Source: Savitreella phatthalungensis (Eukaryota). From it: a DNA stretch of 64,000 nt. The notes beneath the pieces are model-generated. The model was not told where the DNA came from. It saw nothing but the letters and a program-made list of their open reading frames with translations, and searched no databases. The position numbers and the translations under genes are program-made. Location: positions 124,001 through 188,000 of the forward strand of contig AP039711.1 in assembly GCA_051599415.1 (NCBI GenBank), given 5' to 3'. This document shows, one piece after another, positions 278 through 36,227 of the stretch. The first letter of the stretch is position 1. Each line of letters begins with the position of its first letter.

Positions 278-613
278 ATGGCTATCCAGCAGCAACAAGA
301 AGTCGCCGTCGCCGTCCCAGCCACGGTGCCAACCATGTCGCAGACCCCTGTCTCCGACTCCCAGTCTGTCTCTCAGCTTGAGCAACAGACGGCGCCCGTC
401 CAGGAAGGTTGGCTCGCCAGGCTCAGAGGTGGAGCTCACCCTATTGCGGAATGCCTAGCATGCTGCTGTGTCTGTCTCGCGTAAGATCCCCCCTTCTCCC
501 CATTCTCTGGGCTTGACCCGATGACTGACATTTTGTGTTTTCGCGATAGTGCTGAAGATATCGCAGCTTGCCTGTGTCTCGACTCGCTCTGCTTCTGCTG
601 CTCCGAGGCCTAA
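278..613 (+). CDS. Small Cys-rich CYSTM-like membrane-tail protein, 88 aa, 2 exons (278-480, 550-613), with internal RLRGG motif
   Basis: ATG in good context (AAAACATGG). Intron 481-549 has a GTAAGA donor, a CTGAC branch site and a TAG acceptor. Splicing removes the stop at 482-484 and gives ...WLARLRGGAHPIAECLACCCVCLAAEDIAACLCLDSLCFCCSEA*. A Q/P/S-rich N-terminus with a Cys-rich hydrophobic C-terminus is the CYSTM architecture. Confidence 0.8.
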
Positions 614-4730: not shown

Positions 4731-5075
4731 CTAGCACTGCCTAGCCGAGCAGCACAGAGTGTGCAGTGTACAAATCGAGAGACAGGCTGAGGCTCAGACT
4801 CTAGTAGGTATATACGATGTGTATAGGTATCTTCAACCATGGAGTATACCCTGTTACTGCTGCTGCATTGCTGCCGTTGCATTCATCCTTGTATGCGATT
4901 CAAGCTTATAATGAACAGAATGACTGAATGCATGTACGACATTGTACAAAGAAAAAGTTACACAAAACAAGAGAGCACAGAGCGTGACGTCGACAACGAC
5001 CTCCTCCTTCTCCTGATCCTCATCCTCCCCTCTTCTTCTACCCTCTCTCCCTCTCTTCTTTCTATAGACATAGGC

Positions 5076-7541
5076 ATGGCTCCACTGGATCTACCTCCAA
5101 ACCGTGCTCTAGATGCAGCGGCAGCATACCAGTTCAGACAAGTCCTCCAGGCGTACGAGTCAAAGGAGTACAAGCGCGGTATCAAGCTTGCAGATGCCAT
5201 CCTCAAGCGCTTCCCAACTCATGGAGAGACTCTAGCGATGAAGGGTCTCATCACCTACAACACAGGCGCAAAGGACGAAGGTTGGGAGCTTGTGAAGAAA
5301 GGTCTGAGACACGATATCAAAAGTCACGTTGCCTGGCACGTCTACGGGCTGATGCACCGTGCAGAGCGGGCGTGGGAGGAAGCGATGAAGGCGTATGTGA
5401 ATGCACTCAGATTCGAGCCAGAGCAGCAGGTCATCCTCAGAGATCTCGCCAATATTCAGGCTCAACTCCGCGTATATCCTGGTCTAGTCGAGACCCGGAA
5501 AGCCCTCCTAAAACGCACACCCGACGACCGATCTGCAACCACAGCGCTCGCAGTCGCCTACCACCTCGCTGGTGACCCAAAAGCAGCAGACAGAGTTCTG
5601 GAAGCATTCGAGACAGACAAGCTGCTTGTGAAGCCACGCAACTCGCCAGAACACTCCATGGTCACACTTTACCACAACACCGTCATCGCAGCAACAGGTG
5701 ACATCGACCGCGCACTCACCCATCTCAATCTGACTGGGGGAGCAATCCTAGACAAGCTAGAGCTGAAGGAGCGTCGTGCAAAGTACGCACTTGCCCTCGG
5801 TCGGTACGAGGATGCACAGAAGTACTATCTCAGCCTGCTGGACATCAATCCTGACTGCTATGCATACTTTCGTGGGTACACGGCCGCAAGGCAGATCTCC
5901 AATACCGACCAGGATGCTCTCCTCGCCGTGTACAAGGAGCTTCAGAAGAAGTACCCACGGTCGACGGCCGTCAAGCGACTTCCACTTGACTTTCTCACGG
6001 GCGAGAAGTTCGTCGAGGCAGCAGACGCATACCTGCGAGGACGACTCCAAAAAGGTGTTCCTTCGACGTTCGTTGACGTCAAGGCGCTGTACACGTCAGA
6101 GGAGAAGGCAAATACGATCGAGAAGCTTGTTTTAGGGTATCTTGCCGTGCTGGAGCATGACCAGGACGCACCACTCCAAACTCTGACGCCGAATGGGACA
6201 AAGCGAGATGCTCCCACAGCTTACCTGTGGACGCTGTACCTGCTAGCACAGCACTACGACTATACGAGAGCCTTGCCGCGGGCACTCGAGCTGATCGACC
6301 GAGCGATCAGCCACACGCCGACCCTGGTGGAGTTGCATATGGGCCGTGCGCGGATCCTGAAGCATCTGGGCAAGGTCGGGGAGGCTGCAGATGCGATGAA
6401 CGCAGCGAGAGAACTCGACCTGCAAGACCGCCACGTCAACACGAAATCGACAAAGTACTTCCTCCGCGCAGACGCAAATGGCGAAGCCATCCAGACCATC
6501 TCACTCTTCGTCAACACGACACTCGGGGGAGGCGCCATTGGCGACCTCGCGGAAATGCAATCCCTCAACTTCCTGCTTGAGGACGGAATCTCGTGGGCGC
6601 GCCAGGGCCTGATCGGACTAGCCCTCAAGCGCTTCCACCAGGTCAAGAAGGCTGTCGATCTATGGGCTGACGACCAGTACGACTTCCACGCATACTGCTT
6701 CCGAAAGAGCACGCTGGACGCGTATGTGGACATGCTCAAATGGGCGGACAACTCCCTCTACGGCAATGTCCAGTACCGCCGGTGCGTGCGGGCTGCAGTG
6801 TCCATCCTCATCGCCCTTCACCGTGACCCTAGCCTGAACACGGGCTTCCCACCAGACTCCCCAACTGCTACAGACGCAGACAGGAAGAAGGACAGGAAGC
6901 GGATCCAGAAAATCAGGGCAAGAGTGTCCAAGGACGCCACCCGAGAACCAGACAAGAAACCGGAAAAGGACACGAACGCTGACTACGTCAGGAAACCAGA
7001 CCTAGATCCACTAGGTGACACACTCCTCCAAGACAAGCAACCACTCCAAACTGCTCTTACCTATATCACACCGCTCCGCGCAGCACTGCCGACGGATGTC
7101 GAGGCTGTGTGTTTGGAGGCTGACGTGCGATTGTGCCTGGGTGAGTTTGGGAAGGTGTTCGGGTTGCTGGAGAGTGTTGCTGAGGAGGTCGATGGGGATG
7201 TGTGGATCACACCTCGAGCAGTCGCCCTGTGGTGTGCAGTCACGGACGAAGGCACGATCACGAGGTCGGACGTCGAGAGAGCATTCTTCGGTGGACATCC
7301 ACCATCTACAGACTTCCAAATCACAAACCTCCTTTCCATCACAGCATACCTAGACATCCTCAACACGCTGGACGCCAGCACCATCCCACCATCACACGAG
7401 CAGGCTATCCTAAACGTCCTCACAAACACCCGCAAGTTGTCATACCACGATAGCTTGGCCATCGTCAACAGACTTGTGGCTGTGGATGCTGAGGTGGGAG
7501 GTCGTGTGAAGGATGGACTGAATGAGCGGTGGCGCCCTTGA
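5076..7541 (+). CDS. NAT1: NatA N-terminal acetyltransferase auxiliary subunit (Nat1/Naa15)
   Basis: YESKEYKRGIK, HGETLAMKGL, SHVAWHVYGL, HTPTLVELHMGRARILKHLG, ARELDLQDR and DQYDFHAYCFRK are Naa15 TPR motifs. The conserved start is MAPLDLPP at 5076, not the ORF-track start at 4839. Confidence 0.95.
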   Translation: MAPLDLPPNRALDAAAAYQFRQVLQAYESKEYKRGIKLADAILKRFPTHGETLAMKGLITYNTGAKDEGWELVKKGLRHDIKSHVAWHVYGLMHRAERAWEEAMKAYVNALRFEPEQQVILRDLANIQAQLRVYPGLVETRKALLKRTPDDRSATTALAVAYHLAGDPKAADRVLEAFETDKLLVKPRNSPEHSMVTLYHNTVIAATGDIDRALTHLNLTGGAILDKLELKERRAKYALALGRYEDAQKYYLSLLDINPDCYAYFRGYTAARQISNTDQDALLAVYKELQKKYPRSTAVKRLPLDFLTGEKFVEAADAYLRGRLQKGVPSTFVDVKALYTSEEKANTIEKLVLGYLAVLEHDQDAPLQTLTPNGTKRDAPTAYLWTLYLLAQHYDYTRALPRALELIDRAISHTPTLVELHMGRARILKHLGKVGEAADAMNAARELDLQDRHVNTKSTKYFLRADANGEAIQTISLFVNTTLGGGAIGDLAEMQSLNFLLEDGISWARQGLIGLALKRFHQVKKAVDLWADDQYDFHAYCFRKSTLDAYVDMLKWADNSLYGNVQYRRCVRAAVSILIALHRDPSLNTGFPPDSPTATDADRKKDRKRIQKIRARVSKDATREPDKKPEKDTNADYVRKPDLDPLGDTLLQDKQPLQTALTYITPLRAALPTDVEAVCLEADVRLCLGEFGKVFGLLESVAEEVDGDVWITPRAVALWCAVTDEGTITRSDVERAFFGGHPPSTDFQITNLLSITAYLDILNTLDASTIPPSHEQAILNVLTNTRKLSYHDSLAIVNRLVAVDAEVGGRVKDGLNERWRP

Positions 7542-7695: not shown

Positions 7696-8541
7696 ATGGA
7701 TGACGAGTTGCGCTACGACCAAGACATCGCTCAAGGCTTGTATGACGCCGGTCTAGAGTTTGCTCGAACCATGTCACTCGTCCGCCATGCCAAGTGAGTT
7801 CCTCTCTCCCATGGTAGATGTACATACCTACTGACTACGTAGGTGGGCTGGCAGTGGTCGTCAACGGCGTACAGTTTCAACAAACGTCCGCTTTAAAAGA
7901 CTTCGTGTACGTGTGCGAACGTGTGTGTATGTACAGCGACTGACGATGCGCAAAAGGAGCAGATCGATCCACCGCGACCGCAGGTGTACCCGCAGGTGAG
8001 AGTTCACCAACCGCCTCCCGACACCGTTGTTGTCCCTAGAGCTCCTAGATCAAGAGCGTTTGTGCCGGACTCCACACCTGCTGTGACGAGCCCCGAGAGC
8101 GAGAGGGACTCGGCAGAGTGGGTGTACGTCCCACAGGAGAGATCTGCAAGGAGAGCTTTCCATCCAGTGGTGCAGATGACCACGACGCGGGGCGATGAGC
8201 TGCACCACGGAGTTCCCCCGCCGACACCGCAGATGGAGATGGACACGGACACGGCAACGGTCTCGTGGCAGCCGGAGGTGTCTGCAGGAGCCGTGGTGGA
8301 GATGGGCTTCGAGAGTGAGGAGACTGGACTGACAGGCAACGATGACGTTGATATCGGGGAAGAAAAAGAAGGAGAGAAGCGATCTCGACCGGCGGATCTC
8401 CCGTCTCCCGAACGCAAGCGGCAGAAAACTACTGCTGATCAGCGCACCGATCATTTTGAGCGAACCGACCATGTTGATGACGATGAATCGTTCTGGCGAG
8501 CGGCAGCGAGGGTGGATGACGAGCGAGCGTTCATGCCATAA
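7696..8541 (+). CDS. Hypothetical protein, 248 aa, 3 exons (7696-7793, 7843-7906, 7957-8541)
   Basis: Two canonical short introns (7794-7842 GTGAGT..CTGAC..TAG; 7907-7956 GTACGT..CTGAC..AAG) join MDDELRYDQD... in frame to the 7921-8541 ORF without stops. The C-terminal part is low complexity with an NLS-like SPERKRQK. Confidence 0.7.
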
Positions 8542-11047: not shown

Positions 11048-13009
11048 TTACTCTGCCTCGAGGATTTTCAGTGCTGCTAGAAGTCGAGTGGCTTGAGGGT
11101 TTTCGGCTGGTGGTGTGTATGGTTGATCGTTGAGTCTGTCTGAGAGTTTCTGGATGGCATCTTCCAGTCTGGCGACGAGATCTGCCGCTGTGACGTCGTC
11201 GACTTCGGGCACGATGACCTGGGCACGAGGACGCTCAGGAATAGGGGTGAAGGCGCGAGCTAGGAGTGTCTCGATCGTGACATCGTTCGCTGATACGATA
11301 TCGGCATCCTGATCATCGTTCTCGTCATAGGGGCTGTACTTTGGGAAATCTGAGCGAGGTGCGTGTGGGGATTGTTGCGGAAGCGCTGATTGCGTCCTAC
11401 GATGTGCCGAATGGACTCCTGGCTTGGCAGGTGTACGCGGTAGTGGGATGCCACTCGGCGTCCGACCTTCGAGTCGGGAGGATGGCCTGCGTGTTAGACC
11501 ACTGCCAGCAGAAAGATCCCAGCTGCCGAGCCGACCGATGAATTGCTGTTGCCGTGACGGCGGCCGGATTCTTGATTGACGCTGACCAATGGGGAACTCG
11601 TGAAATACCTCCGGTGGCGATGTCTTGGGCGCGTTCGGCTCGACAATTTCCGGCTCAGCAGTTTTCGACAGGGAGTACCGCGTGTGGTCAGGTTCAGAGA
11701 AGCTGCCAGTTGCGGTGTTGCCTTCGCTGCTGCTACTCCCGTCGGAGCGCTTCCGGGGTGGATTGTACAGGAGGTCCCTTGGGTGGCCCTGCATGGTCAT
11801 GAGCTCGTTTGCCGGCTGAGAGAGACGAGGAGGGGTGGCTCGGGTTGGGGAGACACCGTCATTGGACGCGGTCGAGTCAAGAACGAGGGATCTGCGCGCA
11901 TACCCGCCTCCAAACAGCTCACTCTCGAATGTCGGCCTCGGTGAGAAGAGCAGGTCGTCGGTGATGACGGTCACGGTGGACGCGCGTTTCTCAGCGATGG
12001 GTTCTGGGACAGGTTGTGTCGGGGAGATGGAGCGGAAGGCGCCGAGAGGTTGGATCGTCGAGGTTGCCGTTCGTGGAAGCGGATTGGTTATGAGCTCAGA
12101 ATCTCTACGTCTGTCGACGGCGCGAGTGGCTCCGCCGCGCTCGTGTGCCGAAAGCTTCGTGGTGTGGAAGACTGGAATGTGGAAGAGTGCAAGATCAGGC
12201 TCGATTGGTGTCTTCCGTGCCACAGTCGATCGAGCATCAGGAGTGTACCGCTGCTTCTGCTTTGAACCACCTTGGTTTTTCTCACGCAGCCTGTCGATAC
12301 CACCAACCGTGACGACCTCCGGTGGGTAAAAGTCCAAACCAACAAGAGACAACTGTGGATCGTCTTTTGTGATGACGGAGGGACGGGCGTAGGAGAGACC
12401 CTTCGGGGTGGAATAGAATGCCATGACACCAGATTGCTTGCGCGGTGTGACTGGCGGAAGCATGTCTTCCTGATGACGAGAAGCCAAGATTTTCAGGTCA
12501 GGGATCTGCTCAGCCCGAGGACGAGGTGGTCGGACGGGGCGCGTCCGCGCGAGCGCCCGACTTATGACATTTGCATCGATCGACCCGAGTGCTTCACCTC
12601 CTTGAGGTAGAGTACTGCGGATGATCTGGAGTTCGTCCCGGAGCTTTCTTAGCTCTGCTGTGTGGGCAAATGAATCTGAACGCGTGATCATCAGAGACAT
12701 GAGCGAATTGCGAACATTGTCGCGTGGAGACGGGGTCGGAGTCGTCTGCACTGCTGTGGTTGCGGTGGACTTGATGGACGTGGTCGCAGGACTGCCACCA
12801 ACGGAGGTACGACTACGTACACGGGAGATGCTCGACCGTGCGTTCGCCAATTGGAGGTCCACAAGCTCGAGCTTGGCGCGCGCCCTAGCAATGGCGCGCT
12901 CTGCGGCGAGCGATAGCGATTGCGGGGTCATCGCATCCATCCGATCAAAGTCTGACTCTGCTGCTGTCGCTCCTGCCGCTGGAACCGCCGTTGCTGTCAT
13001 CGTTGCCAT
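11048..13009 (-). CDS. Hypothetical S/P/R-rich, largely disordered protein with short predicted coiled coils (about 653 aa)
   Basis: Long open frame; first ATG at 13009 in good context. Helical segments LAAERAIARARAKLELVDLQLANAR and DLVARLEDAIQKL; many SP/TP sites; no recognisable domain. Confidence 0.7.
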   Translation of the reverse strand: MATMTATAVPAAGATAAESDFDRMDAMTPQSLSLAAERAIARARAKLELVDLQLANARSSISRVRSRTSVGGSPATTSIKSTATTAVQTTPTPSPRDNVRNSLMSLMITRSDSFAHTAELRKLRDELQIIRSTLPQGGEALGSIDANVISRALARTRPVRPPRPRAEQIPDLKILASRHQEDMLPPVTPRKQSGVMAFYSTPKGLSYARPSVITKDDPQLSLVGLDFYPPEVVTVGGIDRLREKNQGGSKQKQRYTPDARSTVARKTPIEPDLALFHIPVFHTTKLSAHERGGATRAVDRRRDSELITNPLPRTATSTIQPLGAFRSISPTQPVPEPIAEKRASTVTVITDDLLFSPRPTFESELFGGGYARRSLVLDSTASNDGVSPTRATPPRLSQPANELMTMQGHPRDLLYNPPRKRSDGSSSSEGNTATGSFSEPDHTRYSLSKTAEPEIVEPNAPKTSPPEVFHEFPIGQRQSRIRPPSRQQQFIGRLGSWDLSAGSGLTRRPSSRLEGRTPSGIPLPRTPAKPGVHSAHRRTQSALPQQSPHAPRSDFPKYSPYDENDDQDADIVSANDVTIETLLARAFTPIPERPRAQVIVPEVDDVTAADLVARLEDAIQKLSDRLNDQPYTPPAENPQATRLLAALKILEAE

Positions 13010-13474
13010 TGCGGACACGAAGATCGAAGAGTCTGGTGAGCTGCGCTAGGATGTTATACCTGTGACATGTCTGTGTGCATTTGGAGGGCTCGAGCCAGGA
13101 GAGTCTGATGAGCTGTGAAAGTACTTCGTGAAAGAGCTATTGAGTAGTCGTGAGATTTCGAAGTGGAGACTCGGAAGCGTTCGACGATGTGCGCGTCTGT
13201 GGCCTTTTCGAGGAGACTGTGGAGTGTTGGAGGAGGTTGAAGATGGTGGTTGGTATGACTCTTTGAGGTTGGAGCCTGATCGAGGGTACCCGAACATTTG
13301 ACACGTCTCTTTTTTGGTGTTGGAGATTACCCGTTCCGGAAGAGCTGATGACTCGATTTGGCTGAATTAGGGAATTTCTCTTTTCCCTTTTGTTTTCGCT
13401 TTTTGCTTTGCCTTTTCAGCTTTGATTCTTCTTATAATCAATTAATTGATTGATTGAATTTCGATTGAATGAAT

Positions 13475-15964
13475 TCAGCCGCGGCGCAGAGTCCGGGGAT
13501 GCACGTGCACATGCACAGGTGCTGGTACTGGCACAGGCAGGTCGTCTTGTGGATTGTCTTCCTCGCCACTTGCCTGTAGTTGTGCGTCCTCGTCATATTC
13601 TTCCTCTTCTTCCTCATCGTCTTCTTCTTCTTCTTCTTCTTCTTCCTCCTCATCTTCTCCTTCCCCGTTGCTATCGTCTTCTCCATATTCGCTGCCTGCA
13701 TCACTCCGTAGAGCTGGTGCACTTTGAGAGCGTTTGTCTGCGGCCTGCTGCGCTCGGACGTGCCGATCGAGCTTGCTGACAAGGCCTTGTGATGATGATT
13801 CTCCTTGCTTTGATTCTATCTGCTGGCTAGTGCGAGCGGCTGTGACTGAGGATGGAGCACTAGCTGCTTTGGCAGGCGCAGATCTCGACCGCGGTCTGTG
13901 GCTTGCGCTTTCGTCTTCGACCGCTCTCGCCACAATAGGCTGACGCGTGCTGTGTCTGAGTGGTGGTGGTGGCTTGTGTGTGAGTGACATGCCGGCCACA
14001 CGTGCTTCCACATCGGCGTCTGTTGCCGAGGGCTTTCGCTTGCCGACAGTCCTGTCGCAGGTTGAGAGACTGGACGAACCGCCAGGATGGTGTACTCTGC
14101 TTGGACTCAGTCTTCGGCGTTTCTCCTCAAGTGACGCTTTCGACAGCTGCTCCGAGGGGACTTCTGACTCGCCTCGCTGGCGCTTGCCTGCTGCCGGTGC
14201 TGATGGATGGTGCGAGATGATGGCATGAGCCACGGTGGTCGCGCCTGCTGACGTCGCAGCCGTGTTTGCGTCCTGCTGGGCTTGGAAGGCGCGGTAGGTG
14301 GTCTCGAGTGCACGAATGAGTTGCGTACGCGGTGCGAAGGAGAGTGCTCGGGAGATTAGAGCGGTGTCTGTGACGCCTGCTGCGAGAGTCCGGACTGCTC
14401 GGGAGAGGGAGGCTGATGAAGGGAAAAGCGTGGCAAAGACCTCGGCCATCCGTGTGGGTAGTTCGACATCGCCAAAGAAACCGCGGTCAGCGTCGTCTCC
14501 CGCCCACTCGTCTACGACAGCCTCGAGCGATAAGGCGCCAGGCCGGTCCCCAGGCTCGCAGTCTTCCGCAGCGTCTGCGGATCGCTCGCGCACGTGTAGG
14601 ATGTCGACAAAGCGCGATGCCGGGTCGATCAGATTCCGAAGCTCGTCAGGAGATGCACGAGTCCATTTGGGTTCCGTCAGCGGCCGATCGAGATCGAGTT
14701 CTAATGTGATGGTCCTGTGAGAGGAGAGCTGTCCACCTGTGGGATCGTGTGCGGATCGCCAGGTTGGGGTGCTAATCGATCCAGTCGCGGACGTGGCCGC
14801 TGCCACTGTTGTGGTCGTTGCCCCAGACCGATCCGACCGCTCCGAGCCTCCTGTCCTGTCAGGCCGTAGCAAGGAAGGCGCATCATCTGCAGGCACGAGC
14901 TCTTCAAAGGCTGCCCAGCCGTCTGTGGCAATGACGATCCTGCCGGATGCACGGAGGAAGTCTATCCGGGAGATATGATGAGTAGGGATGACGATCCTGC
15001 GAGTACCGCGTGAATGACTGATGGAGAGTCTGTCTGGGTGGATGAGAGCTGCATCAGCTGCAGAGAGTCGAGCATCCGGTCCGCGGTCGGAAGCCTTACG
15101 AAAGCAGAATCGTACACGCGAGTCACGTGCACCTCCGCTGACAGTCTCATCAGACTGAGATCCTTCGTCTGAGGTCCAGGAACCGCAGTAGACAGCTTTC
15201 AGACGGAAGTCAGAGAATGTGCGGCGAGCTTGCGGATGTCTTGACGCGTCCTGTGGCACGGTTGGCCGACTGTTTGGCGGTCTACCGAAAGAACGCTCGC
15301 TGGCGGGAGACACATGGTTTACCTGCCGACCTGAGAGGACAAGTTCTTGTCCAGTCCTGCTAACGTCGTGATGATGGTGATGCCCATGTGGGTGGTGATT
15401 ATGACTGGACTGATGGCGATTGGCGTGATTGCGCGGGTCTACCCGCTTTCGTTTGCTTGCGTGCTGTGGCGAGACGTGTCGATGGTCACCGTAAGTGCTT
15501 GGTGTCGTTGATGCTCCTCCGTAGTCTGACGACGGCTTAGCTTCGTGTGTATGTGGGAAATTCTGGGGACGATTCATGGGTCTGTGGTGAGGAGCAAGTG
15601 GAACTGGAGGGTTCTGTGGAGGAAAAGGTCGACCCGATTGATAGACCTGTTGTGGATGGAAGGGTGCGTAGGTATTGTAGGGCATCATGTAAGGCTGTGG
15701 AGGTTTCATCTGAGCACGGTAGTCAAATGCTTCTGGTGGTCCGGGAGGAAACGAATGCTGTTGTGCATGCTGATGTGGGTGAGCATGTGAGGACGAATGT
15801 GGATGTGGTTGAGCGTGTTGCTCTGAACGAATTGGAGGCTGCCATGGTGGGCGCATGCCTGGTGGTGTTCTTATTGGAATCGTCTGCGGATGATCCTGAA
15901 TGTCCGGATCCGCTGGGTGATGCTGATGATCTGCGCCGACACCACGCGCATCTTTACTGCTCAT
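13475..15964 (-). CDS. Hypothetical 829-aa protein: H/P/Q-rich N-terminus, central putative beta-rich domain, acidic tail
   Basis: 829-codon ORF starting at ATG. The central segment DFRLKAV...SRVRFCF...DRLSISH...RRIVI...IDFLRASGRIVI looks folded; poly-E tail encoded by a GAA repeat. Confidence 0.8.
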   Translation of the reverse strand: MSSKDARGVGADHQHHPADPDIQDHPQTIPIRTPPGMRPPWQPPIRSEQHAQPHPHSSSHAHPHQHAQQHSFPPGPPEAFDYRAQMKPPQPYMMPYNTYAPFHPQQVYQSGRPFPPQNPPVPLAPHHRPMNRPQNFPHTHEAKPSSDYGGASTTPSTYGDHRHVSPQHASKRKRVDPRNHANRHQSSHNHHPHGHHHHHDVSRTGQELVLSGRQVNHVSPASERSFGRPPNSRPTVPQDASRHPQARRTFSDFRLKAVYCGSWTSDEGSQSDETVSGGARDSRVRFCFRKASDRGPDARLSAADAALIHPDRLSISHSRGTRRIVIPTHHISRIDFLRASGRIVIATDGWAAFEELVPADDAPSLLRPDRTGGSERSDRSGATTTTVAAATSATGSISTPTWRSAHDPTGGQLSSHRTITLELDLDRPLTEPKWTRASPDELRNLIDPASRFVDILHVRERSADAAEDCEPGDRPGALSLEAVVDEWAGDDADRGFFGDVELPTRMAEVFATLFPSSASLSRAVRTLAAGVTDTALISRALSFAPRTQLIRALETTYRAFQAQQDANTAATSAGATTVAHAIISHHPSAPAAGKRQRGESEVPSEQLSKASLEEKRRRLSPSRVHHPGGSSSLSTCDRTVGKRKPSATDADVEARVAGMSLTHKPPPPLRHSTRQPIVARAVEDESASHRPRSRSAPAKAASAPSSVTAARTSQQIESKQGESSSQGLVSKLDRHVRAQQAADKRSQSAPALRSDAGSEYGEDDSNGEGEDEEEEEEEEEEDDEEEEEEYDEDAQLQASGEEDNPQDDLPVPVPAPVHVHVHPRTLRRG

Positions 15965-16344
15965 CTCATGTCTATCGGACGTTGCTGGCTAGGTTGAAGC
16001 GGGCTAAGAAGAAGATGAAGGTGAGTGATTGTTGGTGGATGATCTCCGTGCATCAGTTTTTTGGTGGAGCCGCTAGTGTTTGTTGCCCGAGTGTGCTGTG
16101 CATGCACATATCAGTATTATGTATTGTACGTCGATGTGGATACGTCACAGATAAATGTATTGCGGACACCACAGAGTCTTTTCTCTTTGATCGCATACTC
16201 ACCAAGAAGCACAACAGAGAGAGAGAGAGCGGCATGAACAAGACAGGATCATGGATTACTTTCAACTACGAGGACCTTGATCGAGTATCACTAGATCAGA
16301 ACCGATTGAGGGATCTCTGAAGCATAAGGAATAACCAAGAGTGC

Positions 16345-16376
<32 letters not shown>
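16345..16376. repeat. Compound microsatellite (GT)6(AG)10
   Basis: Read directly; intergenic. Confidence 0.9.
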
Positions 16377-16540
16377 TACTCGTGTATACACGCGCGTGTC
16401 GGTGACTTTAATGAGATATTTATTTGGGGCGGGGCGATTAGGGAGGGTGATGGGAGAGCAGGACGGAGTGTACATGGCTTGACCTGTGACCTTTGACCTT
16501 TGACCTTTGGCAAAGCGAGCGCTTTGGGGGTCAAGGACGT

Positions 16541-16921
16541 TTAGCAGAGAAGACAGCACTCGACGCATTCTTCTGCGGCACAGCAGCAGAGAAGGGCAGC
16601 ACAACAACCTCCTGCTGCGCCTGCTGCTGCACCACCGCCGTTCTGCTTCATTGGCTGCTGCTGGACGTACATGGGCTGCTGTCCGTATCCCTGCTGCGGG
16701 TATCCTCCCTGCTGTGGGTAACCTCCCTGCTGAGGGTAGCCACCCTGCTGTGGGTAGCCACCACCGTACTGTCCCTGTTGAGGGTAACCTCCCTGGTGAT
16801 TGTTGTTGCCAAAGACGCCGCGCTCACCTGCGCCGCCCTGTGCAGGCGGTGGCTGGGAAGGTGCGTTGTAAGGTGCGCCTCCGGCGTTGTTGTTGTTGTT
16901 GTAGTACTGCGCAGCGCTCAT
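16541..16921 (-). CDS. CYSTM-family protein with GGYPQQ repeats (126 aa)
   Basis: G/Y/P/Q-rich repeats followed by PMYVQQQP and the Cys-rich hydrophobic tail GGCCAALLCCCAAEECVECCLLC. Confidence 0.88.
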   Translation of the reverse strand: MSAAQYYNNNNNAGGAPYNAPSQPPPAQGGAGERGVFGNNNHQGGYPQQGQYGGGYPQQGGYPQQGGYPQQGGYPQQGYGQQPMYVQQQPMKQNGGGAAAGAAGGCCAALLCCCAAEECVECCLLC

Positions 16922-24693: not shown

Positions 24694-27513
24694 TTAGTCT
24701 TCGAAATAGTTTGGATTCTTCTTGACGATGACAACACCCTCGAGAACGTTTGTCGCAGGGAGGTATTCGTCAGTGGCGAGTTCTGCGCGGTGCTCGTAGT
24801 TCAGGAGGACTGGTGTGGTTTGAGTGACCCATCCTGTGATCTTCCGTGGTTTTCCTGGACCGAATGAGTCGACAGCTTGACCCACGCGAACCGTCACAGG
24901 GACTGCGTCACCCTTCTCGTCTACCGTGATCAGCATCCGCGGTCGGAGTGCGGGAGTCATGAGGAACAGCAGCCAGTGTGCGTCCGCGAGAACGGTACGC
25001 TTTGCGTCGAGGAAGGCAATGAGGACAGTGACGAGACCTGCGAGCGCAGTCTTGGAGAAGATCGACCGGTCGAAGTGGAATGGGTTGAGTGACATCGTGC
25101 CCTTGCCGAGGTGGAGAAGTCCCTGTGCGAGGCGGACGACAAATAGTGTGTTGGGCTCCTTGGCGTAGTAGGATGCGAGCGAGCGAAGAAGCTGTGCTAG
25201 ACGGGCGTTGTTGGTACCTGCGCCGACAAGACCCATGGCGAATATGGCGTTGACGGCAACGTCGAGATCGGCGTCGTGGGAGTACCGCGATAGCGTCTCG
25301 AACACTTTCATCTGAGGATTCGATGCAGACAGAAGTCCGAGGGCGAGAGGGACGGCCTTGCGGATGATCGGATCGCCGTAGTGCATCAGGTGACCGAATT
25401 GTCTCAATGCCATCTCCGTGCCGATGTCCTCCCCCATTGCGATTGCCGCAATACCTATTGTGGCGAAAGCCTGGAAGAGGTTGTCGGGCTCGGTGGGGGC
25501 AGGCGTGTCTGGCTGCGCGTCGTCTTCCTCCATTGCGCCATCGGCATTCTCATCAGCTGCGGGCTCCGGTACGGTCAGATGCTCGGCTGTGAGGTGGAGC
25601 ATCCGCTGGACCTTGAGCACGTTGCCGGTACCGGCGTACGCGAGCATATCGAGCAGAACCTCTGCGTGTTTTGCCAGTGGGTTCTCGATCGCTTTCAGGG
25701 TCTCGATTGCAGCGTCTGCCTCCTCCTGCTTCCCCACAAACAGGAGCGCGAGACCGAGGACCATGAAGGGCGCCCACTTGTCACCCACAAGCTGCTTCTC
25801 GTCGCGTTCCATCAAGGTCTGAAGGACGGCTGATGCAACATCTCCGTTGCATGAGCCAACAAAGACGAGACCGAGCGAGAGGGCGGCGAGCGAGCTTACC
25901 TCCATGCTGACATCCGTGTCGCCTACGAGCTCAAGCAGGAGGTCTTGGATATCCTGCCTGTTCGAGCCTGCGTAAGCGAGACCGAGACCGATGATCGCGC
26001 TTGTGCGCAGCTTCGGATTGGATCCTGCTGCCTCCTCCGACAGAAGCGCAATCGCTGGGTCGCCCTCGTGGTGAACGCCGTTATTCATGACTCCGACGCC
26101 CAAGAGCGCGCCGGCCTTGATGTGCTCGTCCTCAGCATAGAAGTACTTGTCGATCAACGACAGACCGTTGTCGACGTCCCACAGACTGAGCAGGCCGATC
26201 GAGGCTGTCGCGGACGCTTGCCCGGCGTCTTTGTTCTTGTACACAAAGCTAGAGCGCTCATCGTCGACAAGGATCATCTTGTCTGTGCCGTAGCCAGCAT
26301 TGACAAAGCCGTTGACGAAGGTGGCTGCGAGGTTCTGCTTGGCAGAGTCGACGCCACCAGTCGAGAAGACTGATCGCGATGGCTCCAGATGCGATTTGTA
26401 GATGTCCTCTGTTGTGCGGGGATCTGCGAGAGAGAGGTCTGTGGTGGCTGCCTTGAAGTACTCGCTTAGTCTAGCGTTGCGTAATGCCTCGGTCAGTGCT
26501 GTCGTCTCTTCATCGTCGTTGTCAATGCTCTCGTCCGCGTCATCATCGTGCAGCCAGATACCCTGCTGGGCGAGCATGAAGGCCAACTGCTTTTTCGTGT
26601 CTGGTCTATCGCATTCTGTCAGCGTCTCACGCATCAGACTTTCCTGGTCGAGGCGAATGGCGAGCAGCATGGCGGATGGCCATTGTCTTTGTTTGCGATA
26701 GATACGATGGGCGGTCTCGAGGAAGATGACGTCGTCCGGTGGTGCAAGCAGGCTGACGCAGTTCGTCATGTACAGGCAGACCTTCGACCAGGTGTTTTCG
26801 TCAACGAATTCGACCAGCATGTCGACGGCCTCCATCTCGAGCACGAGATCGACGGCGTCTGCCTCTGCATTGTGGCTGAGAAAGAACGGAACGAGTTTAC
26901 TCGCAAGGGCGAGGAGGTCTGCTGTATCCTGTTCCTTCTCTATCCTATCTGCGCGCTCTTCACCGATCTCTGTAGCGAGGTGACGGACGTATTCGTGGCC
27001 CCACGTGCCTGGATCCTCGTCCGGTCGCGCGAGTCTATACCGAAGGCAGTCGCGCTTGCTGTCTGCGTAGGTCATGGCGAGGACGGAAAGAACGTCTCCG
27101 AGGTTTCCGCGGACTGTTGCGAGGTCCGGCTGTTTCTGCCAATCATCGTAGACTGTCTGAAGGCTCTGGTAGTGTGGTCTGAGGAACTTGAGTGGCTTTG
27201 GCACTGCTGTCATAGAGGATGTGCTGGTACGGATATGTGTGCCAAGCTGGTCGATTGCTGGCTGGTAAAGAGAGGTGTCGATCTCCTTCAAGCGTTCGAC
27301 CAGCATCTCTAGATCTGTCTTGAGGGCTAGATCTTCCTCTGAAAGTTCTGGCTCATCAGTAGCCTTCTTCTTCGATTTGCCGTCTGCCGCCGTTGTGCCG
27401 TTCGTGGTTCCCTTCTTCTGAGGCTTGTCAGAAACTGTGTTAGGAGCGTTCGTAGAGCCATTCGTGTCGCCGCTGTTGTTGTTGCTGTCCTGCATCTCCG
27501 TGTCCTTACTCAT
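24694..27513 (-). CDS. RPN1: 26S proteasome regulatory subunit Rpn1
   Basis: STSSMTAVPKPLKFLRPHY, WGHEYVRHLA, DSAKQNLAATFVNGFVNAG, GAGTNNARLAQLLR, VRVGQAVD. Confidence 0.98.
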   Translation of the reverse strand: MSKDTEMQDSNNNSGDTNGSTNAPNTVSDKPQKKGTTNGTTAADGKSKKKATDEPELSEEDLALKTDLEMLVERLKEIDTSLYQPAIDQLGTHIRTSTSSMTAVPKPLKFLRPHYQSLQTVYDDWQKQPDLATVRGNLGDVLSVLAMTYADSKRDCLRYRLARPDEDPGTWGHEYVRHLATEIGEERADRIEKEQDTADLLALASKLVPFFLSHNAEADAVDLVLEMEAVDMLVEFVDENTWSKVCLYMTNCVSLLAPPDDVIFLETAHRIYRKQRQWPSAMLLAIRLDQESLMRETLTECDRPDTKKQLAFMLAQQGIWLHDDDADESIDNDDEETTALTEALRNARLSEYFKAATTDLSLADPRTTEDIYKSHLEPSRSVFSTGGVDSAKQNLAATFVNGFVNAGYGTDKMILVDDERSSFVYKNKDAGQASATASIGLLSLWDVDNGLSLIDKYFYAEDEHIKAGALLGVGVMNNGVHHEGDPAIALLSEEAAGSNPKLRTSAIIGLGLAYAGSNRQDIQDLLLELVGDTDVSMEVSSLAALSLGLVFVGSCNGDVASAVLQTLMERDEKQLVGDKWAPFMVLGLALLFVGKQEEADAAIETLKAIENPLAKHAEVLLDMLAYAGTGNVLKVQRMLHLTAEHLTVPEPAADENADGAMEEDDAQPDTPAPTEPDNLFQAFATIGIAAIAMGEDIGTEMALRQFGHLMHYGDPIIRKAVPLALGLLSASNPQMKVFETLSRYSHDADLDVAVNAIFAMGLVGAGTNNARLAQLLRSLASYYAKEPNTLFVVRLAQGLLHLGKGTMSLNPFHFDRSIFSKTALAGLVTVLIAFLDAKRTVLADAHWLLFLMTPALRPRMLITVDEKGDAVPVTVRVGQAVDSFGPGKPRKITGWVTQTTPVLLNYEHRAELATDEYLPATNVLEGVVIVKKNPNYFED

Positions 27514-28135
27514 GGTGAAGGGAGGCGATGTAGCTGTGAATGTAGATGTGGATCTGTACTGAGGCTGACTTGCAGCGTTGGCTTATTTGCAGCGTTGGTG
27601 GGTGAGGCAGTATTCCGCCTGGCTGGAGCTGAAGTGCTTGTTGCGGAGTCAGAGACTATGGAGAGTCAGATGGAGGAAGAGCAGTCTAGTTCTGCTGTCA
27701 CTTGGGACCTCTTGGCGAGTCGGGTATGTCACCGGCTGTCCTGGATCCTTGCTGACTCACTGGAAGGCTGACTAGCTGATCAAATGACCCACCTGCAGTC
27801 CTGATGAGACAATAGAGACTCCTATCGAAGGTAAGGTCGATGATGTGTGTTTGCAGAGGGGTGTGTGTGAGTATGCGCGTATACGTACGTGTGTATGGGT
27901 TGACGCGCAGACTGAGAATTAACTGACTGCATCTGTGCTGCATACGCAATCAATCCATTCATCAATCTCCAATAAATACACGTGCAAGTGATCATTTCAT
28001 CCATCTATACAGTGACAGTATCCTCACACCACATCGATAGACAAAGTCATCACGTACACAGACTCACAAGACAAAAGCGAGTCAACAAGAACAATAGCTC
28101 AGAGACGAATCCTTTCTGAAGATTCATTGAACATC

Positions 28136-28433: not shown

Positions 28434-29492
28434 GCGAGAAAATTGTGTTTCGCCATGACGAGAACGAGGACCTAATGACGACGATGATGATTAACGACGT
28501 GCTTTGGAAATGCTGATAATGCATGTCCGTGAGTCATGCTCAGTGCATGACTGAGACACAGAATGCACGCCAGGTCAAGCGAGCATACCCCGGAGCAGCG
28601 ATGATTATTGGCGAGTCTATAAACTTCTCACTTCTGCACGAATACCACGATCGTCGAATGCAGAGTGCAGAGCGCCTCTGATGCGTTGCGCTCAGCATGG
28701 CTTCGCCCCATCATTTCGAGCAATCAGGAATTCAGGCGAGCTCTTTACCATTGGCGTCTTTTCAAGGATCCTGCGGGAGCCAGTCACTCCTGCCTCTTCA
28801 AAAGGAATTGATTTCAGTCAAGACATTTAGCTAACGTCGAGCTCGATTGATCTCTCCGGCGGTTTGGGTCTTGCACTGCACCTTGAATAAAGGTGGCGTC
28901 AGTTTGCCAGGACAATTCAAGGGCTTCTCCTCTGCCAACTGTCTTTTCAAGCTGTCATAGCTGCAATTGGATGCCTTGTGTGAGACCGTCTCCCTCGGGT
29001 GTATGAGTTGAGCTGAATCGCCCATTGAACGAGAGAAATTCTTAGGTAACAACATGGTCACTCAGCAACATAATATCGACATTGGATGATACTATGATCG
29101 TGAAAGTGATCGAGCGTAACAGATAATGAGCTTAGATTGAATCTAGACTTAAGCTACTTCTATGTGCAAGAGACGAAGACTGACTGGCCACTTTTCCAGA
29201 CACTCCGTTGACTCGTTAGGCCCTACCATTCAATGGATGTCGTTGGTGAGGTGAATACGCTGAATGGAATTCTTGATAGGAATGATATGTGGATGAATGG
29301 TGAATTCTGTGATGGAGCAGCGTCACTGTTCAGTTGATCGAATCTATTCAGTACACGTGAATAGATCCAATACAACAGCACGTCATCAACAGCCTACTTC
29401 ATCAGCCATCAACTCTTGGATCTCAACTCTTCCTCTCTTCATCCACTCGGTTCAGCTGCATTTCGGCCGGGACTAGATACATCTTCACTACG

Positions 29493-30401
29493 ATGAGCGC
29501 GAACTCAGACAAGGATTCAGTGGACTTGCTGATTCTCGGCGCAGGATGGACAAGTACATTCTTGATTCCTCTTTTGAAGGAAGAGCGTGTGAGCTTTGCT
29601 GCCACCACCACTACCGGACATGACAACACAATCTCGTGGCGATTTGATCCTGACGAAGTCGGTCACGATTCATACAAGCTTCTCCCTCGTGCTCAAACCG
29701 TCCTTGTCACTTTCCCGCTCAAGGGCACCGGCCAGAGCAGGAAACTCATCGAGTCATACAACGCTGTTCATGGGCAAGCCTTCGTGAGCGGTCGATCTGA
29801 TGAGATCCACTTTATCCAGCTTGGCAGTACTGGAATCTGGGGAGGCGGTCCGACATCTCGTGCCTCTCAGTCTTCAGATTTCAAGAATGAGGAGACCTGG
29901 GTGACAAGACACTCGCCTTACAATCGGGAGGATCTTCGAGCGATCGCAGAAGACGAATTCAAGTCGCTCGGCGGCGTCATTCTCAACCTCTCGGGACTCT
30001 GGGGAGGTCCTCGCCAGCCGAGAAACTTTGTCTCTCGAGTTGCAGGATCGAAGGAGCAGTTGGCTGGCAAATCGTCACTGCACATGATCCACGGCCGCGA
30101 TGTCTCACGCGGTGTTCTTGCAGTCCACAGGAAGTGGCCTGGCGCAAGTCGTTGGCTGCTCACCGACACGTTCGTCTATGATTGGTGGGCGCTCGCGATC
30201 GGCTGGGGCGACGGTGGAACGGGGACACTGGCCAGCGGGGACACAGACGTCCAGGGCAAGCAGGCACAGTGGGTGCTCGAGCTCATGAAGGAGCAAAATG
30301 TCAGAGCACTCCCGCGCCCACCAGAAACTCTGACACGCGCACTCGATAGCACAGAGTTCTGGCACACCTTTGGCATCTGGCCTGTCAGAGCTAGAATCTG
30401 A
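29493..30401 (+). CDS. NAD(P)-binding Rossmann-fold protein (atypical SDR-like, conserved fungal hypothetical)
   Basis: LLILGAGWTSTFLIPLL nucleotide-binding start, FIQLGSTGIW, LNLSGLWGG, HMIHGRDV. Confidence 0.8.
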   Translation: MSANSDKDSVDLLILGAGWTSTFLIPLLKEERVSFAATTTTGHDNTISWRFDPDEVGHDSYKLLPRAQTVLVTFPLKGTGQSRKLIESYNAVHGQAFVSGRSDEIHFIQLGSTGIWGGGPTSRASQSSDFKNEETWVTRHSPYNREDLRAIAEDEFKSLGGVILNLSGLWGGPRQPRNFVSRVAGSKEQLAGKSSLHMIHGRDVSRGVLAVHRKWPGASRWLLTDTFVYDWWALAIGWGDGGTGTLASGDTDVQGKQAQWVLELMKEQNVRALPRPPETLTRALDSTEFWHTFGIWPVRARI

Positions 30402-30664
30402 TCGATGGCTCAATTCGAGCGAAGGTATACCAAAGACACCCTAAATCTTCTTTAATGGCATGATGTGTGACGTCTCTAGTCTCCCCCAAATCTCCGTTGT
30501 CCTTGTGAATCTGACCTTTGGCCGCGTAACTGTCTACTTATTGACATGTTGATACGTGCATGTGCATCTGACAGGGAGCTGATAATGACGAGCTAAAAAT
30601 AGATTTCCGTCCCCAGGTACAGGGCAACTACGACATCACTTACCCTCCCAACCCGCGAAAGGCA

Positions 30665-31885
30665 ATGCCTGCTCGCATGAGAGCGACTGCTAAAGCAGCG
30701 TCGCATGACGCTCGTTTTGATCTGTCAAAGTTCGAGAACGATGATGATGGTGATGGCGCCGACGGCACATCGTCACTATCTGGGTCTGATGAGGAGGATG
30801 CTGAAGAAGACCAGGAGAGCGAGGAGGATAATGAAGACGAAGACGTTCGTGATATCTCGAAAGGTACAGGCTCATCGAAGCGGAGGAGGCTAGTGAACAC
30901 GGTCGAGCCGAGTAAATCAACCGGCAAGAAATCCAATCTCTCAGGACTCCCTCAATTCACAGCGGATCTATCTTCCGAGAGCAGCAGCAGCGACGACGAT
31001 GACGACGACGACGATGACGGCGTCGACGAGGACGATGAGCCAGAGCCAAAAACATCACCAGAGACTCGCACAGAGGCAAATCTCGCCGAGACATCACTGA
31101 AGCGGAAGCGTGTAGAGATCGCATCGCTGACGCCGGAGGCGCTTGCTGATTTGGAGCGTCGTAAGGCTGCTTCTGGGGTGATTTATTTGTCGCGGGTGCC
31201 GCCGTTTATGAAGCCTACGAAGGTGCGGCACTTGCTTGCTCCGTTTGGCGAGATTGGTCGGATTTTCTTGGCGCCTGAGGACGATCGGTCTTACGCGCGC
31301 CGTGTCAAGAGCGGTGGGAACAAGCGCCGGCGGTATGTGGAAGGGTGGATTGAGTTTGCCGATCGGCGGCGAGCGAAGCTGGTCGCAAGGACGCTCAATA
31401 CGCGGCCTGTTGGGAGCACTGCGTCGGTGCTCGGTGCCGGGAGAGCTGGGAAGAAGGAGCGGTTTTACGCGGATGATTTGTGGAATCTGAAGTATCTGCC
31501 AAAGTTCAAGTGGGATGATCTGACAGCGCAGATTGCAGGCGAGCGGCGTGCGCAGGAGGCCAAGCTCAGGTCGGAGCTGCTACAGCAAGAGAGGGAGGAC
31601 AGGCATGTTGTCAGGCAGCAGCAGAAACACAGAGAGGTCGAGGCCATCAAGCGGACACGTCAACGCAGGGCCGAGGAGCGGCAAGCCGAGGGCAAGCAGC
31701 CACTCCCCGAGAAGCTGCGCCCCACGGAGAACACCGGCGCGCAGGGGAGAGGATTCAGGCAGAATGTGGTCATGGATCGCGCTGCAGCTGGCGGTGGCGA
31801 TGCTGCAGTTGCTAAGCCTATCAACAAGTCATCTGGAGGTGCTCATGGCGAGCCTCTGCAAAAGGTGCTCGACAGTATCTTCTAG
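30665..31885 (+). CDS. ESF2: Pre-rRNA processing protein Esf2/ABT1 (SSU processome)
   Basis: GVIYLSRVPPFMKP.KVRHLL..FGEIGRIFLAPED, EGWIEF, DDLWNLKYLPKFKWDDLT.QIA. Confidence 0.96.
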   Translation: MPARMRATAKAASHDARFDLSKFENDDDGDGADGTSSLSGSDEEDAEEDQESEEDNEDEDVRDISKGTGSSKRRRLVNTVEPSKSTGKKSNLSGLPQFTADLSSESSSSDDDDDDDDDGVDEDDEPEPKTSPETRTEANLAETSLKRKRVEIASLTPEALADLERRKAASGVIYLSRVPPFMKPTKVRHLLAPFGEIGRIFLAPEDDRSYARRVKSGGNKRRRYVEGWIEFADRRRAKLVARTLNTRPVGSTASVLGAGRAGKKERFYADDLWNLKYLPKFKWDDLTAQIAGERRAQEAKLRSELLQQEREDRHVVRQQQKHREVEAIKRTRQRRAEERQAEGKQPLPEKLRPTENTGAQGRGFRQNVVMDRAAAGGGDAAVAKPINKSSGGAHGEPLQKVLDSIF

Positions 31886-35886: not shown

Positions 35887-36227
35887 GGCTAGCAAGCCAC
35901 AGTACTGCTCTGGCACGTAACAGACACAGAGAACGCCTTAGACCGTGACCCCAGGGAGGATTGTTGGAGCTTGATTAACTCGGAGCTCTTGAAGAGAGAG
36001 ATCTCGAGAGTCTGGGGTAAATCAGTGACTGGATCATCGTGACTGCTACTAAAATTAGACTGCACTTTTTTTTGACAGGTCTGTAGATCATAAAAAATCT
36101 GACAACCGATACATCTAATCGCCGGCAACTGCGGCGAGGATGTGACTCAATACACTCGCCTGGGTTACAACACGGATAGTAGCTGTACATGATATACATC
36201 TATGTGCTTGAACCTGACCTGTGAGAT

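Follow-up and report, generated by a model that had tools for sequence, protein, structure and literature searches.

A two-exon gene encodes a lysine-free protein with an internal RLRGG

The window, that is, the whole stretch of 64,000 nucleotides of Savitreella phatthalungensis DNA that was analysed, holds a short two-exon gene on its forward strand and a second, classical CYSTM gene on its reverse strand (Table 1). S. phatthalungensis belongs to the Taphrinales within the Ascomycota. Joined by their coordinates, the two exons form a 267-nt coding sequence that starts with the ATG at 278 and specifies a product of 88 aa. Their translation is identical to P0004, the 88-aa entry that NCBI lists as 'hypothetical protein PYCC9005_005518 [Savitreella phatthalungensis]'.

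Table 1. Positions of the 88-aa protein's gene, of its parts and of the second CYSTM gene within the window.
Feature	Position	Strand	Remarks
Exon 1	278..480	+	From Met1 through base 2 of codon 68 (Ala); codes for the disordered leader (aa 1-47), for RLRGG (aa 48-52) and for the initial half of the Cys-rich tail
RLRGG codons (aa 48-52)	419..433	+	Sole invariant columns of the 19-member family alignment
Intron	481..549	+	69 nt, phase 2; 5' site GTAAGA, branch-like CTGAC at 525-529, 3' end TAG
Exon 2	550..613	+	Base 3 of codon 68 (Ala), then AEDIAACLCLDSLCFCCSEA; stop TAA at 611-613
Cys-rich acidic tail (aa 53-88)	434..610	+	Split by the intron at 481-549
Second, classical CYSTM gene (P0003, 126 aa)	16541..16921	-	PF12734 at E 2.5e-9, 37.5 bits against a cut-off of 25.2

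The splice rests on the sequence signals of the intron, on the NCBI model and on the ends of homologous proteins. Left unspliced, the open reading frame at 278-484 gives 68 residues ending in ...CVCLA, and its TAA stop is formed by the 5' splice site. The homologues end in three ways: P0005 stops at ...CCCA, P0006 diverges past ...CCCA, and P0007 runs on as ...CCCAAEDIA. From these protein ends, rather than from DNA, we infer that P0005 and P0006 may represent unspliced read-through at the equal phase-2 position, and P0007 the spliced form. An earlier, sequence-only reading of this DNA had proposed the two-exon structure with its intron at 481-549, and the structure holds at the level of sequence: its product is the NCBI model, and the homologue ends agree with it.

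Translation of the joined exons also bears out the composition given in that reading. The 88-aa protein contains no lysine, its RLRGG stands at residues 48-52, and the 36 residues that follow include 10 Cys. This tail further carries five Asp or Glu, has no Lys or Arg, and shows no uncharged stretch longer than 11 aa. With the composition of the window's ORFs, the chance of zero Lys in 88 aa is 0.02. The leader, which had been described as disordered and rich in Q, V, S and P, is rich in Q, V, A, S, P and T (Q10 V7 A6 S5 P4 T4 among its 47 residues), and AF2, supplied with the 19-row family alignment, modelled it as disordered. In that model the pLDDT averaged 54, with values under 50 at residues 6-10 and 17-40. 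Residues 44-50 formed a short helix of low confidence, G51-A53 a break and residues 54-68 a further helix; WLARLR appeared as a short helix and not as a strand (pLDDT about 55-63). The Mucorales AF2 model had no secondary structure at all (mean pLDDT 51). These models are of low confidence, and they are used here solely for saying that no fold is apparent.

A classical CYSTM gene and housekeeping neighbours

P0003, encoded by the second gene, is laid out as a Q/G/Y/P-rich head, a MYVQQQ element, a Gly/Ala linker and a CCAALLCCCAAEEC... tail; it holds ...KQNGGG... and has one Lys in its 126 aa. Its QNGGG, found where RLRGG might have been expected, had been put forward as an internal control. 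It controls little, since P0003 belongs to a different, classical YVQQQ subfamily and is not an ortholog. The gene offers a paralogue-level comparison that lies outside the RLRGG family.

Among the 25 long ORFs of the window, those matched in a Pfam scan were housekeeping genes, and 7 of the 25 were without a match. The names assigned include Rpc34, a NatA auxiliary subunit, Pex2/12, cyclin, RPN1 and Rio2, together with the mitochondrial RNA polymerase, NMD3, Nop53, Mlh1 and MOR2/PAG1. No deubiquitinase (DUB), acyltransferase or peptidase was found beside the gene in the scan of these 25 ORFs.

RLRGG forms the only invariant columns of a small fungal family

Four sequence searches yielded 18 relatives, which together with P0004 make up the family analysed here (n=19). 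P0005 and P0006 were found alongside P0004 in the first protein search. An exhaustive HMMER search of 1.84 billion representatives returned five proteins, namely P0004, P0007, P0006, P0008 (from the rust Melampsora) and P0009. A search for shared exact 5-residue words returned seven and added P0010, from the rust Cronartium, and P0011, from the mucoralean Sporodiniella (E 0.08), and a further search returned 13, consisting of P0011 and 12 more Mucorales (Rhizopus, Mucor, Backusella, Parasitella and unnamed records). P0009, a 390-aa repeat protein (E 7e-4), was dropped, its match being one of low complexity to leader residues 11-40 only. A pattern search of metagenome DNA for relatives gave 553 matching stretches, none of them confirmed. 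Two metagenome loci picked up with the Mucorales profile were rejected, one as a bacterial response-regulator ORF and the other as a 758-aa protein with a chance CVCEECCC.

RLRGG was present in all 19 collected members, drawn from Taphrinales-like fungi, rusts and Mucorales, a sampling that is small and partly circular, and motif-less members could have been missed. Genes of this size frequently lack annotation. The sequence-only reading had made its case depend on conservation of the motif in relatives, and on this point it withstood the comparison: R48, L49, R50, G51 and G52 were the sole invariant columns of the 19-row alignment, with P14, C59 and C65 nearly invariant. LRLRGG, which reproduces the end of ubiquitin over six residues exactly, occurs in 15 of the 19; the other four have ARLRGG and are Taphrinales-like members. 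Nowhere in the 19 sequences is R exchanged for K, or one residue for another within L/I/V/M or within G/A/S, at any of the five positions. The residue directly past the GG is always Ala or Gly (19/19) and never Pro.

The surroundings of the motif vary more. Leaders are 41-61 aa long and poorly conserved; that of P0007 measures 148 aa, of which the N-terminal ~110 look like a mis-predicted extension. From the motif to the first Cys there are 2-8 residues family-wide, and in the 13 Mucorales members this Cys lies 2-3 residues past the GG. Lysine is missing altogether from nine of the 19 members and from the segment past the motif in every one. That segment is free of Arg as well (Lys/Arg in 0/19), has between one and five acidic residues in each member, and has a longest uncharged stretch of 11 aa in 16 of the 19. 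Among the Mucorales, near-invariance extends over the whole tail. Taphrinales-like members and rusts have the same motif but not the same flanking residues, nor even the same Cys pattern.

To judge by this pattern, the conserved RLRGG is probably functional, and the 88-aa protein belongs to a small CYSTM/CYSPD-like subfamily of fungi, apparently not described before, with an invariant juxta-anchor RLRGG collar. Among the papers listed in a full-text literature search there was no account of RLRGG or LRLRGG in CYSTM, palmitoylated or Cys-rich fungal microproteins, and the matches listed for RLRGG together with mimicry concerned viral proteases, HDAC6 or bacterial effectors. RLRGG and LRGG are absent from the searchable part of the supplement to PMC2804304, which takes in one of its two files; the full alignment might contain subfamily members.

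Conservation is robust between two lineages, and the link to the third depends largely on the motif

Given the amino-acid composition of the window's long ORFs, a chance RLRGG should arise at about 2e-6 per position, which makes roughly 10 in a proteome of 5 million residues. A second RLRGG is found in the window itself, at 6460-6474 on the reverse strand, in a non-coding frame. A lone RLRGG is not improbable; the motif of the 88-aa protein is lifted above chance because it is conserved in 19 of 19 family members.

We used hhalign to compare the groups with the RLRGG columns deleted. Taphrinales-like members and rusts were still aligned at a probability of 95.7% (E 1e-8), which argues that RLRGG has been robustly conserved between the ascomycete lineage and the rust fungi. 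For Dikarya against Mucorales, the probability was 96.1% (E 3e-9) with the motif and 17% (E 1.5e-3) without its columns; tails alone gave 0.9% and leaders alone 0.2%. Taken separately and without the RLRGG columns, Taphrinales-like members reached 67% against Mucorales (E 5e-5) and rusts reached 24%. On inspection, the words that P0011 has in common with the query all stem from the motif, and thus the bridge to the Mucorales was found via the motif itself. The Mucorales group is either homologous but very divergent, or it came to the same arrangement independently, and invariance of RLRGG across three phyla by descent is not proven. Whichever origin holds for the Mucorales, it is not by chance that (L)RLRGG and a Cys-rich C-terminal tail occur together.

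The tail resembles CYSTM/CYSPD modules

CYSTM/CYSPD proteins are widespread, stress-related microproteins whose molecular action is, according to the authors who describe them, still unknown (PMC2804304; PMC10840359 in the part available). They are small (<150 aa), and from a polar, disordered head rich in P/Q they lead through a strand element in the cytoplasm and a linker to a C-terminal Cys patch (PMC2804304). The cytoplasmic beta-strand element has conserved hydrophobic residues and is joined by the linker to the Cys-rich helix, and the module itself occupies the extreme C-terminus, with 5-6 Cys, of which 3-4 are consecutive, followed by an acidic residue (PMC2804304).

The 88-aa protein agrees with this description in its size and in its Q-rich leader of low pLDDT. 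Its CLACCCVCLAAED... reaches the C-terminus, with CCC at aa 62-64 and then E70/D71, as in the Cys module described in PMC2804304. The place of the strand element is taken in the family by (W/F)LA-RLR or (F/L)L-LRLR; AF2 draws a low-confidence helix there in the 88-aa protein and no secondary structure in the Mucorales model. The likeness extends to the named members of the group (PF12734; yeast Cpp1-3, S. pombe Uvi15, plant PCC1/CDT1), which are likewise small proteins with a disordered polar head, a short conserved element and a Gly-containing linker, and a C-terminal run of Cys followed by acidic residues. The differences lie in two parts of the protein. Where the classical P0003 has a strand of the YVQQQ type, the upstream element of the 88-aa protein is the invariant RLRGG, and its tail, at 36 aa with 10 Cys, is longer than those of CYSTM proteins, contains five acidic residues and is nowhere uncharged for more than 11 aa.

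The sequence-only reading had called the tail a CYSTM module. The resemblance stands on profile comparison, on ESM Atlas and on architecture; a Pfam assignment for the 88-aa protein does not, as P0004 had no CYSTM match even at E<=10. PF12734 was matched below threshold in 13 of the 19 members, all of them Mucorales (best E 0.0022; gathering score 25.2 bits), and the match of P0011, at 16.3 bits, begins at the second Arg of RLRGG and covers profile positions 14-37. When the family was aligned with P0003 by hhalign, HPIAECLACCCVCLAAEDIA was placed against GAAGGCCAALLCCCAAEECV over 20 columns, at a probability of 58% (E 1e-4); the Mucorales profile reached only 8% against P0003. In the ESM Atlas, P0004 and P0010 both have top clusters that bear the name CYSTM, at a score of 0.92 and with 175 and 185 features in common, and several Mucorales members are named 'CYSTM domain-containing' in UniRef. 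Weak Pfam matches to MtrE, Tox-REase-3, DUF1308, Pdase_C33_assoc, ROKNT and others were set aside as noise (E>=0.0076, in one member each).

In yeast, CYSTM proteins are bound to membranes through S-acylation and are not transmembrane, and tags placed at the C-terminus disturb their anchors (PMC10840359, in the part available). The name CYSPD stands for CYSTM proteins whose Cys-rich tail binds the membrane by being S-acylated (Giolito et al. 2023). The longest uncharged run of the present tail, at 11 aa, is too short for a membrane-spanning helix, and on its charge pattern the tail is too broken up to cross a bilayer.

The motif is that of the ubiquitin tail, without a ubiquitin fold

The family shares an identical penta- or hexapeptide with the C-terminal tail of ubiquitin, LRLRGG, and in both it is preceded by hydrophobic residues and followed by a small one. 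ISG15 likewise ends in LRLRGG. The invariant block corresponds to the part of the ubiquitin tail that enzymes grip, from P5 to P1, and we know of no reader of RLRGG other than the ubiquitin system. Unlike that of ubiquitin, however, the family's motif is internal, and it stands behind a disordered leader of 41-61 aa that has no beta-grasp fold.

As the sequence-only reading had supposed, no ubiquitin fold is detectable ahead of RLRGG by Pfam, AF2 or PDB profile search. None of the 19 members had a ubiquitin-family Pfam match at E<=10, and the leader was modelled as disordered. The PDB profile search matched only ubiquitin chains, and these only via their last ~17 residues, with ...sfllRLRGG aligned to ...LHLVLRLRGG; single ubiquitin scored E 1.9 against the family profile, the high scores being sums over polyubiquitin repeats. 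The matches include an eS31/S27a fusion chain (E 2.5). As in the ubiquitin fusion precursors (eS31/eL40), ...RLRGG directly precedes a Cys-containing C-terminal extension; unlike them, the 88-aa protein is without a complete ubiquitin domain. The extension of eS31/eL40 is a folded, zinc-binding ribosomal protein, which is not so in the 88-aa protein.

RLRGG may act uncleaved, beside a membrane anchor

We consider it most likely that RLRGG acts uncleaved, as a sequence-specific juxta-anchor element, and we give this reading about an even chance of being right. The protein has three parts: a disordered, lysine-poor, polar head; an invariant collar made of hydrophobic residues, x and RLRGG; and a C-terminal tail that is acidic and Cys-rich. 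As in the CYSTM proteins of yeast, this tail most likely holds the protein on a membrane by multiple S-acylation. The alternating hydrophobic/arginine stretch provides the only positive charges beside an all-acidic tail. The collar sits in place of the classical CYSTM strand element (YVQQQ in P0003), with the Gly-Gly as a hinge behind it, and would dock the newly made protein on the membrane, on an acyltransferase or on another partner, thereby presenting the Cys cluster for acylation. Identity with the ubiquitin tail would on this account be a convergence on an extended 'strand plus di-glycine' peptide.

A purely electrostatic or hinge role would tolerate exchanges within R/K, L/I/V/M or G/A/S; because no such exchange is seen at the five positions, the alignment argues for a specific reader. 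Conservation in itself is as compatible with recognition or a structural role of an uncut motif as it is with cleavage.

Alternative readings of the motif

The sequence-only reading took RLRGG for a ubiquitin-tail mimic; we weigh this idea first among the alternatives, in a broadened form, and consider it unlikely. (L)RLRGG would be a linear motif in its own right, joined to a Cys-rich, lipidated anchor and read by the ubiquitin system without any ubiquitin fold. In a cut version, a DUB would cleave past the GG and produce two pieces, a disordered leader ending in ...RLRGG, whose freed carboxyl end could bind domains of the ZnF-UBP type, and a short lipidated or metal-binding Cys peptide. In an uncut version, the motif would dock a DUB or other tail-binding domain at the membrane. 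The exactness of the match suits either version: RLRGG supplies the only invariant columns, it is extended to LRLRGG in 15 of the 19, conservative substitutions do not occur, Ala or Gly but never Pro follows, and hydrophobic residues precede the motif as they do in ubiquitin. The pentapeptide RLRGG alone suffices for binding to the HDAC6 ZnF-UBD, for which PDB 3GV4 is cited (10.1101/268557, in the part available). Rsp5 and the proteasome mediate the turnover of yeast CYSTM proteins, as stated in the accessible part of PMC10840359, which makes a link to ubiquitin not far-fetched.

Against this stand the absence of a ubiquitin fold (no Pfam match in the 19 members, E 1.9 for single ubiquitin) and a leader that is disordered and poorly conserved. 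DUBs need more than the tail: LRGG tetrapeptides are 'very poorly hydrolyzed', and efficient catalysis requires an exosite for the body of ubiquitin (PMC7477763, in the part available). The scissile bond in the Mucorales members would sit 2-3 residues from the first Cys and, once this is acylated, would lie at the membrane surface, which would count against cleavage by a DUB. The scarcity of Lys, with nine members free of it and none carrying it past the motif, agrees with the mimic but also fits a Q/S/T/P-rich composition; P0003, outside the family, has one Lys in 126 aa, and zero Lys in the 88-aa protein has a composition-based chance of 0.02. On present biochemical knowledge, DUB processing is less likely than an uncleaved role.

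We regard it as distinctly improbable that the motif is an arginine-based R-x-R sorting signal. A hydrophobic residue followed by R-L-R would bind COPI and keep the unacylated protein in the ER/Golgi, and acylation of the adjoining Cys cluster would draw the motif onto the bilayer, mask it and allow export. A hydrophobic residue is favoured before RXR, and in the family the invariant R-L-R is preceded by Leu in 15 and by Ala in four of the 19 members and lies 2-8 residues from the first Cys; the known ER/Golgi signals likewise place R-x-R in a cytosolic, membrane-proximal segment. COPI binds RXR motifs, which keep membrane proteins in the ER/Golgi and are open to masking (PMC6589700, in the part available). 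The R-x-R pattern is present throughout the family but is too short to be diagnostic, and the reading leaves both the invariant Leu at x and the invariant Gly-Gly unexplained, neither of which an RXR signal requires. The proteins for which such signals have been described are moreover integral, multimeric membrane proteins; CYSTM proteins, by contrast, seem to be peripheral (accessible part of PMC10840359).

A motif of no special function, whether a chance match to the ubiquitin tail within a generally conserved module or an artefact of the gene model, seems very improbable. The roughly 10 copies expected in a fungal-sized proteome, and the second copy in a non-coding frame of the window, are in line with chance, as is the almost invariant tail of the Mucorales, whose link to the family depends largely on the motif. 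But the motif is unchanged between Taphrinales-like members and rusts, whose homology is recovered at 95.7% without it and whose flanks and Cys pattern differ, and an artefact sits poorly with a splice that agrees with both the NCBI model and the homologue ends.

A double-glycine leader, as in bacterial bacteriocin and lanthipeptide systems, where a dedicated peptidase cuts the leader after GG, shares with the 88-aa protein the order of leader, GG and Cys-rich core, but we find it hardly credible for a fungal, cytosolic protein without signal or transporter context, which lies among housekeeping Pfam neighbours (7/25 ORFs without a match) and whose tail resembles CYSTM anchors, not secreted peptides. 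By the usual consensus rules, N-myristoylation of a neo-N-terminal Gly was set aside because of the Pro at position 5 in the window's protein, and Kex2-type cleavage because of the lack of a dibasic site or secretory signal.

Implications for CYSTM-like microproteins

If the ubiquitin system does read RLRGG, the ubiquitin tail would be a portable linear motif that operates outside the beta-grasp fold in eukaryotic cells, and S-acylated microproteins would be linked to deubiquitinases. The mimic would then amount to a releasable, membrane-tethered head that leaves a diGly-ended peptide for readers of the ZnF-UBP type or, alternatively, to a membrane decoy or recruiter for DUBs. If it is not ubiquitin-read, as under the uncleaved role that we favour, the motif would still mark the binding site of a partner, be it an acyltransferase, a coat or another protein, that handles these anchors. 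Should the Mucorales and Dikarya groups not be homologous, the same solution would have arisen twice. In each case, five invariant residues beside the anchor provide a sharp handle on this group of proteins, and each of them can be mutated singly.

Leader conservation and genomic surroundings of the RLRGG protein

In the alignment of the RLRGG-bearing family (A4), the leader carries a second conserved element near its N-terminus, weaker than the first. The Mucorales version of this element reads E(V/I)PMAT(M/V/L)A, followed by ..YP, the Taphrinales-like version reads P(V/Q)AMAPM, and the 88-aa window protein has AVPATVPTM; Pro14 is nearly invariant across the family. The element may represent a short linear motif in the cytosolic head.

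Six-frame translation of the window revealed another RLRGG, in the context ..LRHLRLRGGSTLS.. This is a chance occurrence, as it lies antisense to the ORF of a NatA auxiliary subunit and has a stop codon nearby in its own reading frame. Seven of the 25 long ORFs scanned in the window, 214-837 aa, lacked a Pfam match at E<=1e-5, among them the five marked as unmatched in the table below. The same scan placed a proteasome subunit gene, RPN1, in the window; we see no grounds for connecting this gene with the RLRGG protein.

Features of the window
Feature	Positions	Strand	Remark
NatA auxiliary-subunit ORF	4827-7541	+	
Second RLRGG	6460-6474	-	
N-terminal leader element	~305-337		window protein aa ~10-20
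Long ORF	7897-8541	+	no Pfam match
Long ORF	11048-13045	-	no Pfam match
Long ORF	13475-15988	-	no Pfam match
(GT)n and (GA)n microsatellites, threefold TGACCTT(TGACCTT)2 repeat	16340-16378, 16483-16510		just 3' of the stop codon that ends the classical CYSTM gene
RPN1	24694-27582	-	Pfam scan of long ORFs
Long ORF	29361-31885	+	no Pfam match
Long ORF	34156-35937	-	no Pfam match

Public records of family members

The 88-aa Mucor velutinosus member (P0023) is labelled 'Bifunctional purine biosynthesis protein PurH', a name that is probably an annotation error. Another member, P0007, has an N-terminal extension of ~110 aa with a counterpart in no relative; this too is probably misannotated. The Melampsora record (P0008) stops at ...CIGIEEL, where the Cronartium protein runs on with ...CIGIEEFCCIEALNSCLGN, which suggests that its last exon was missed.
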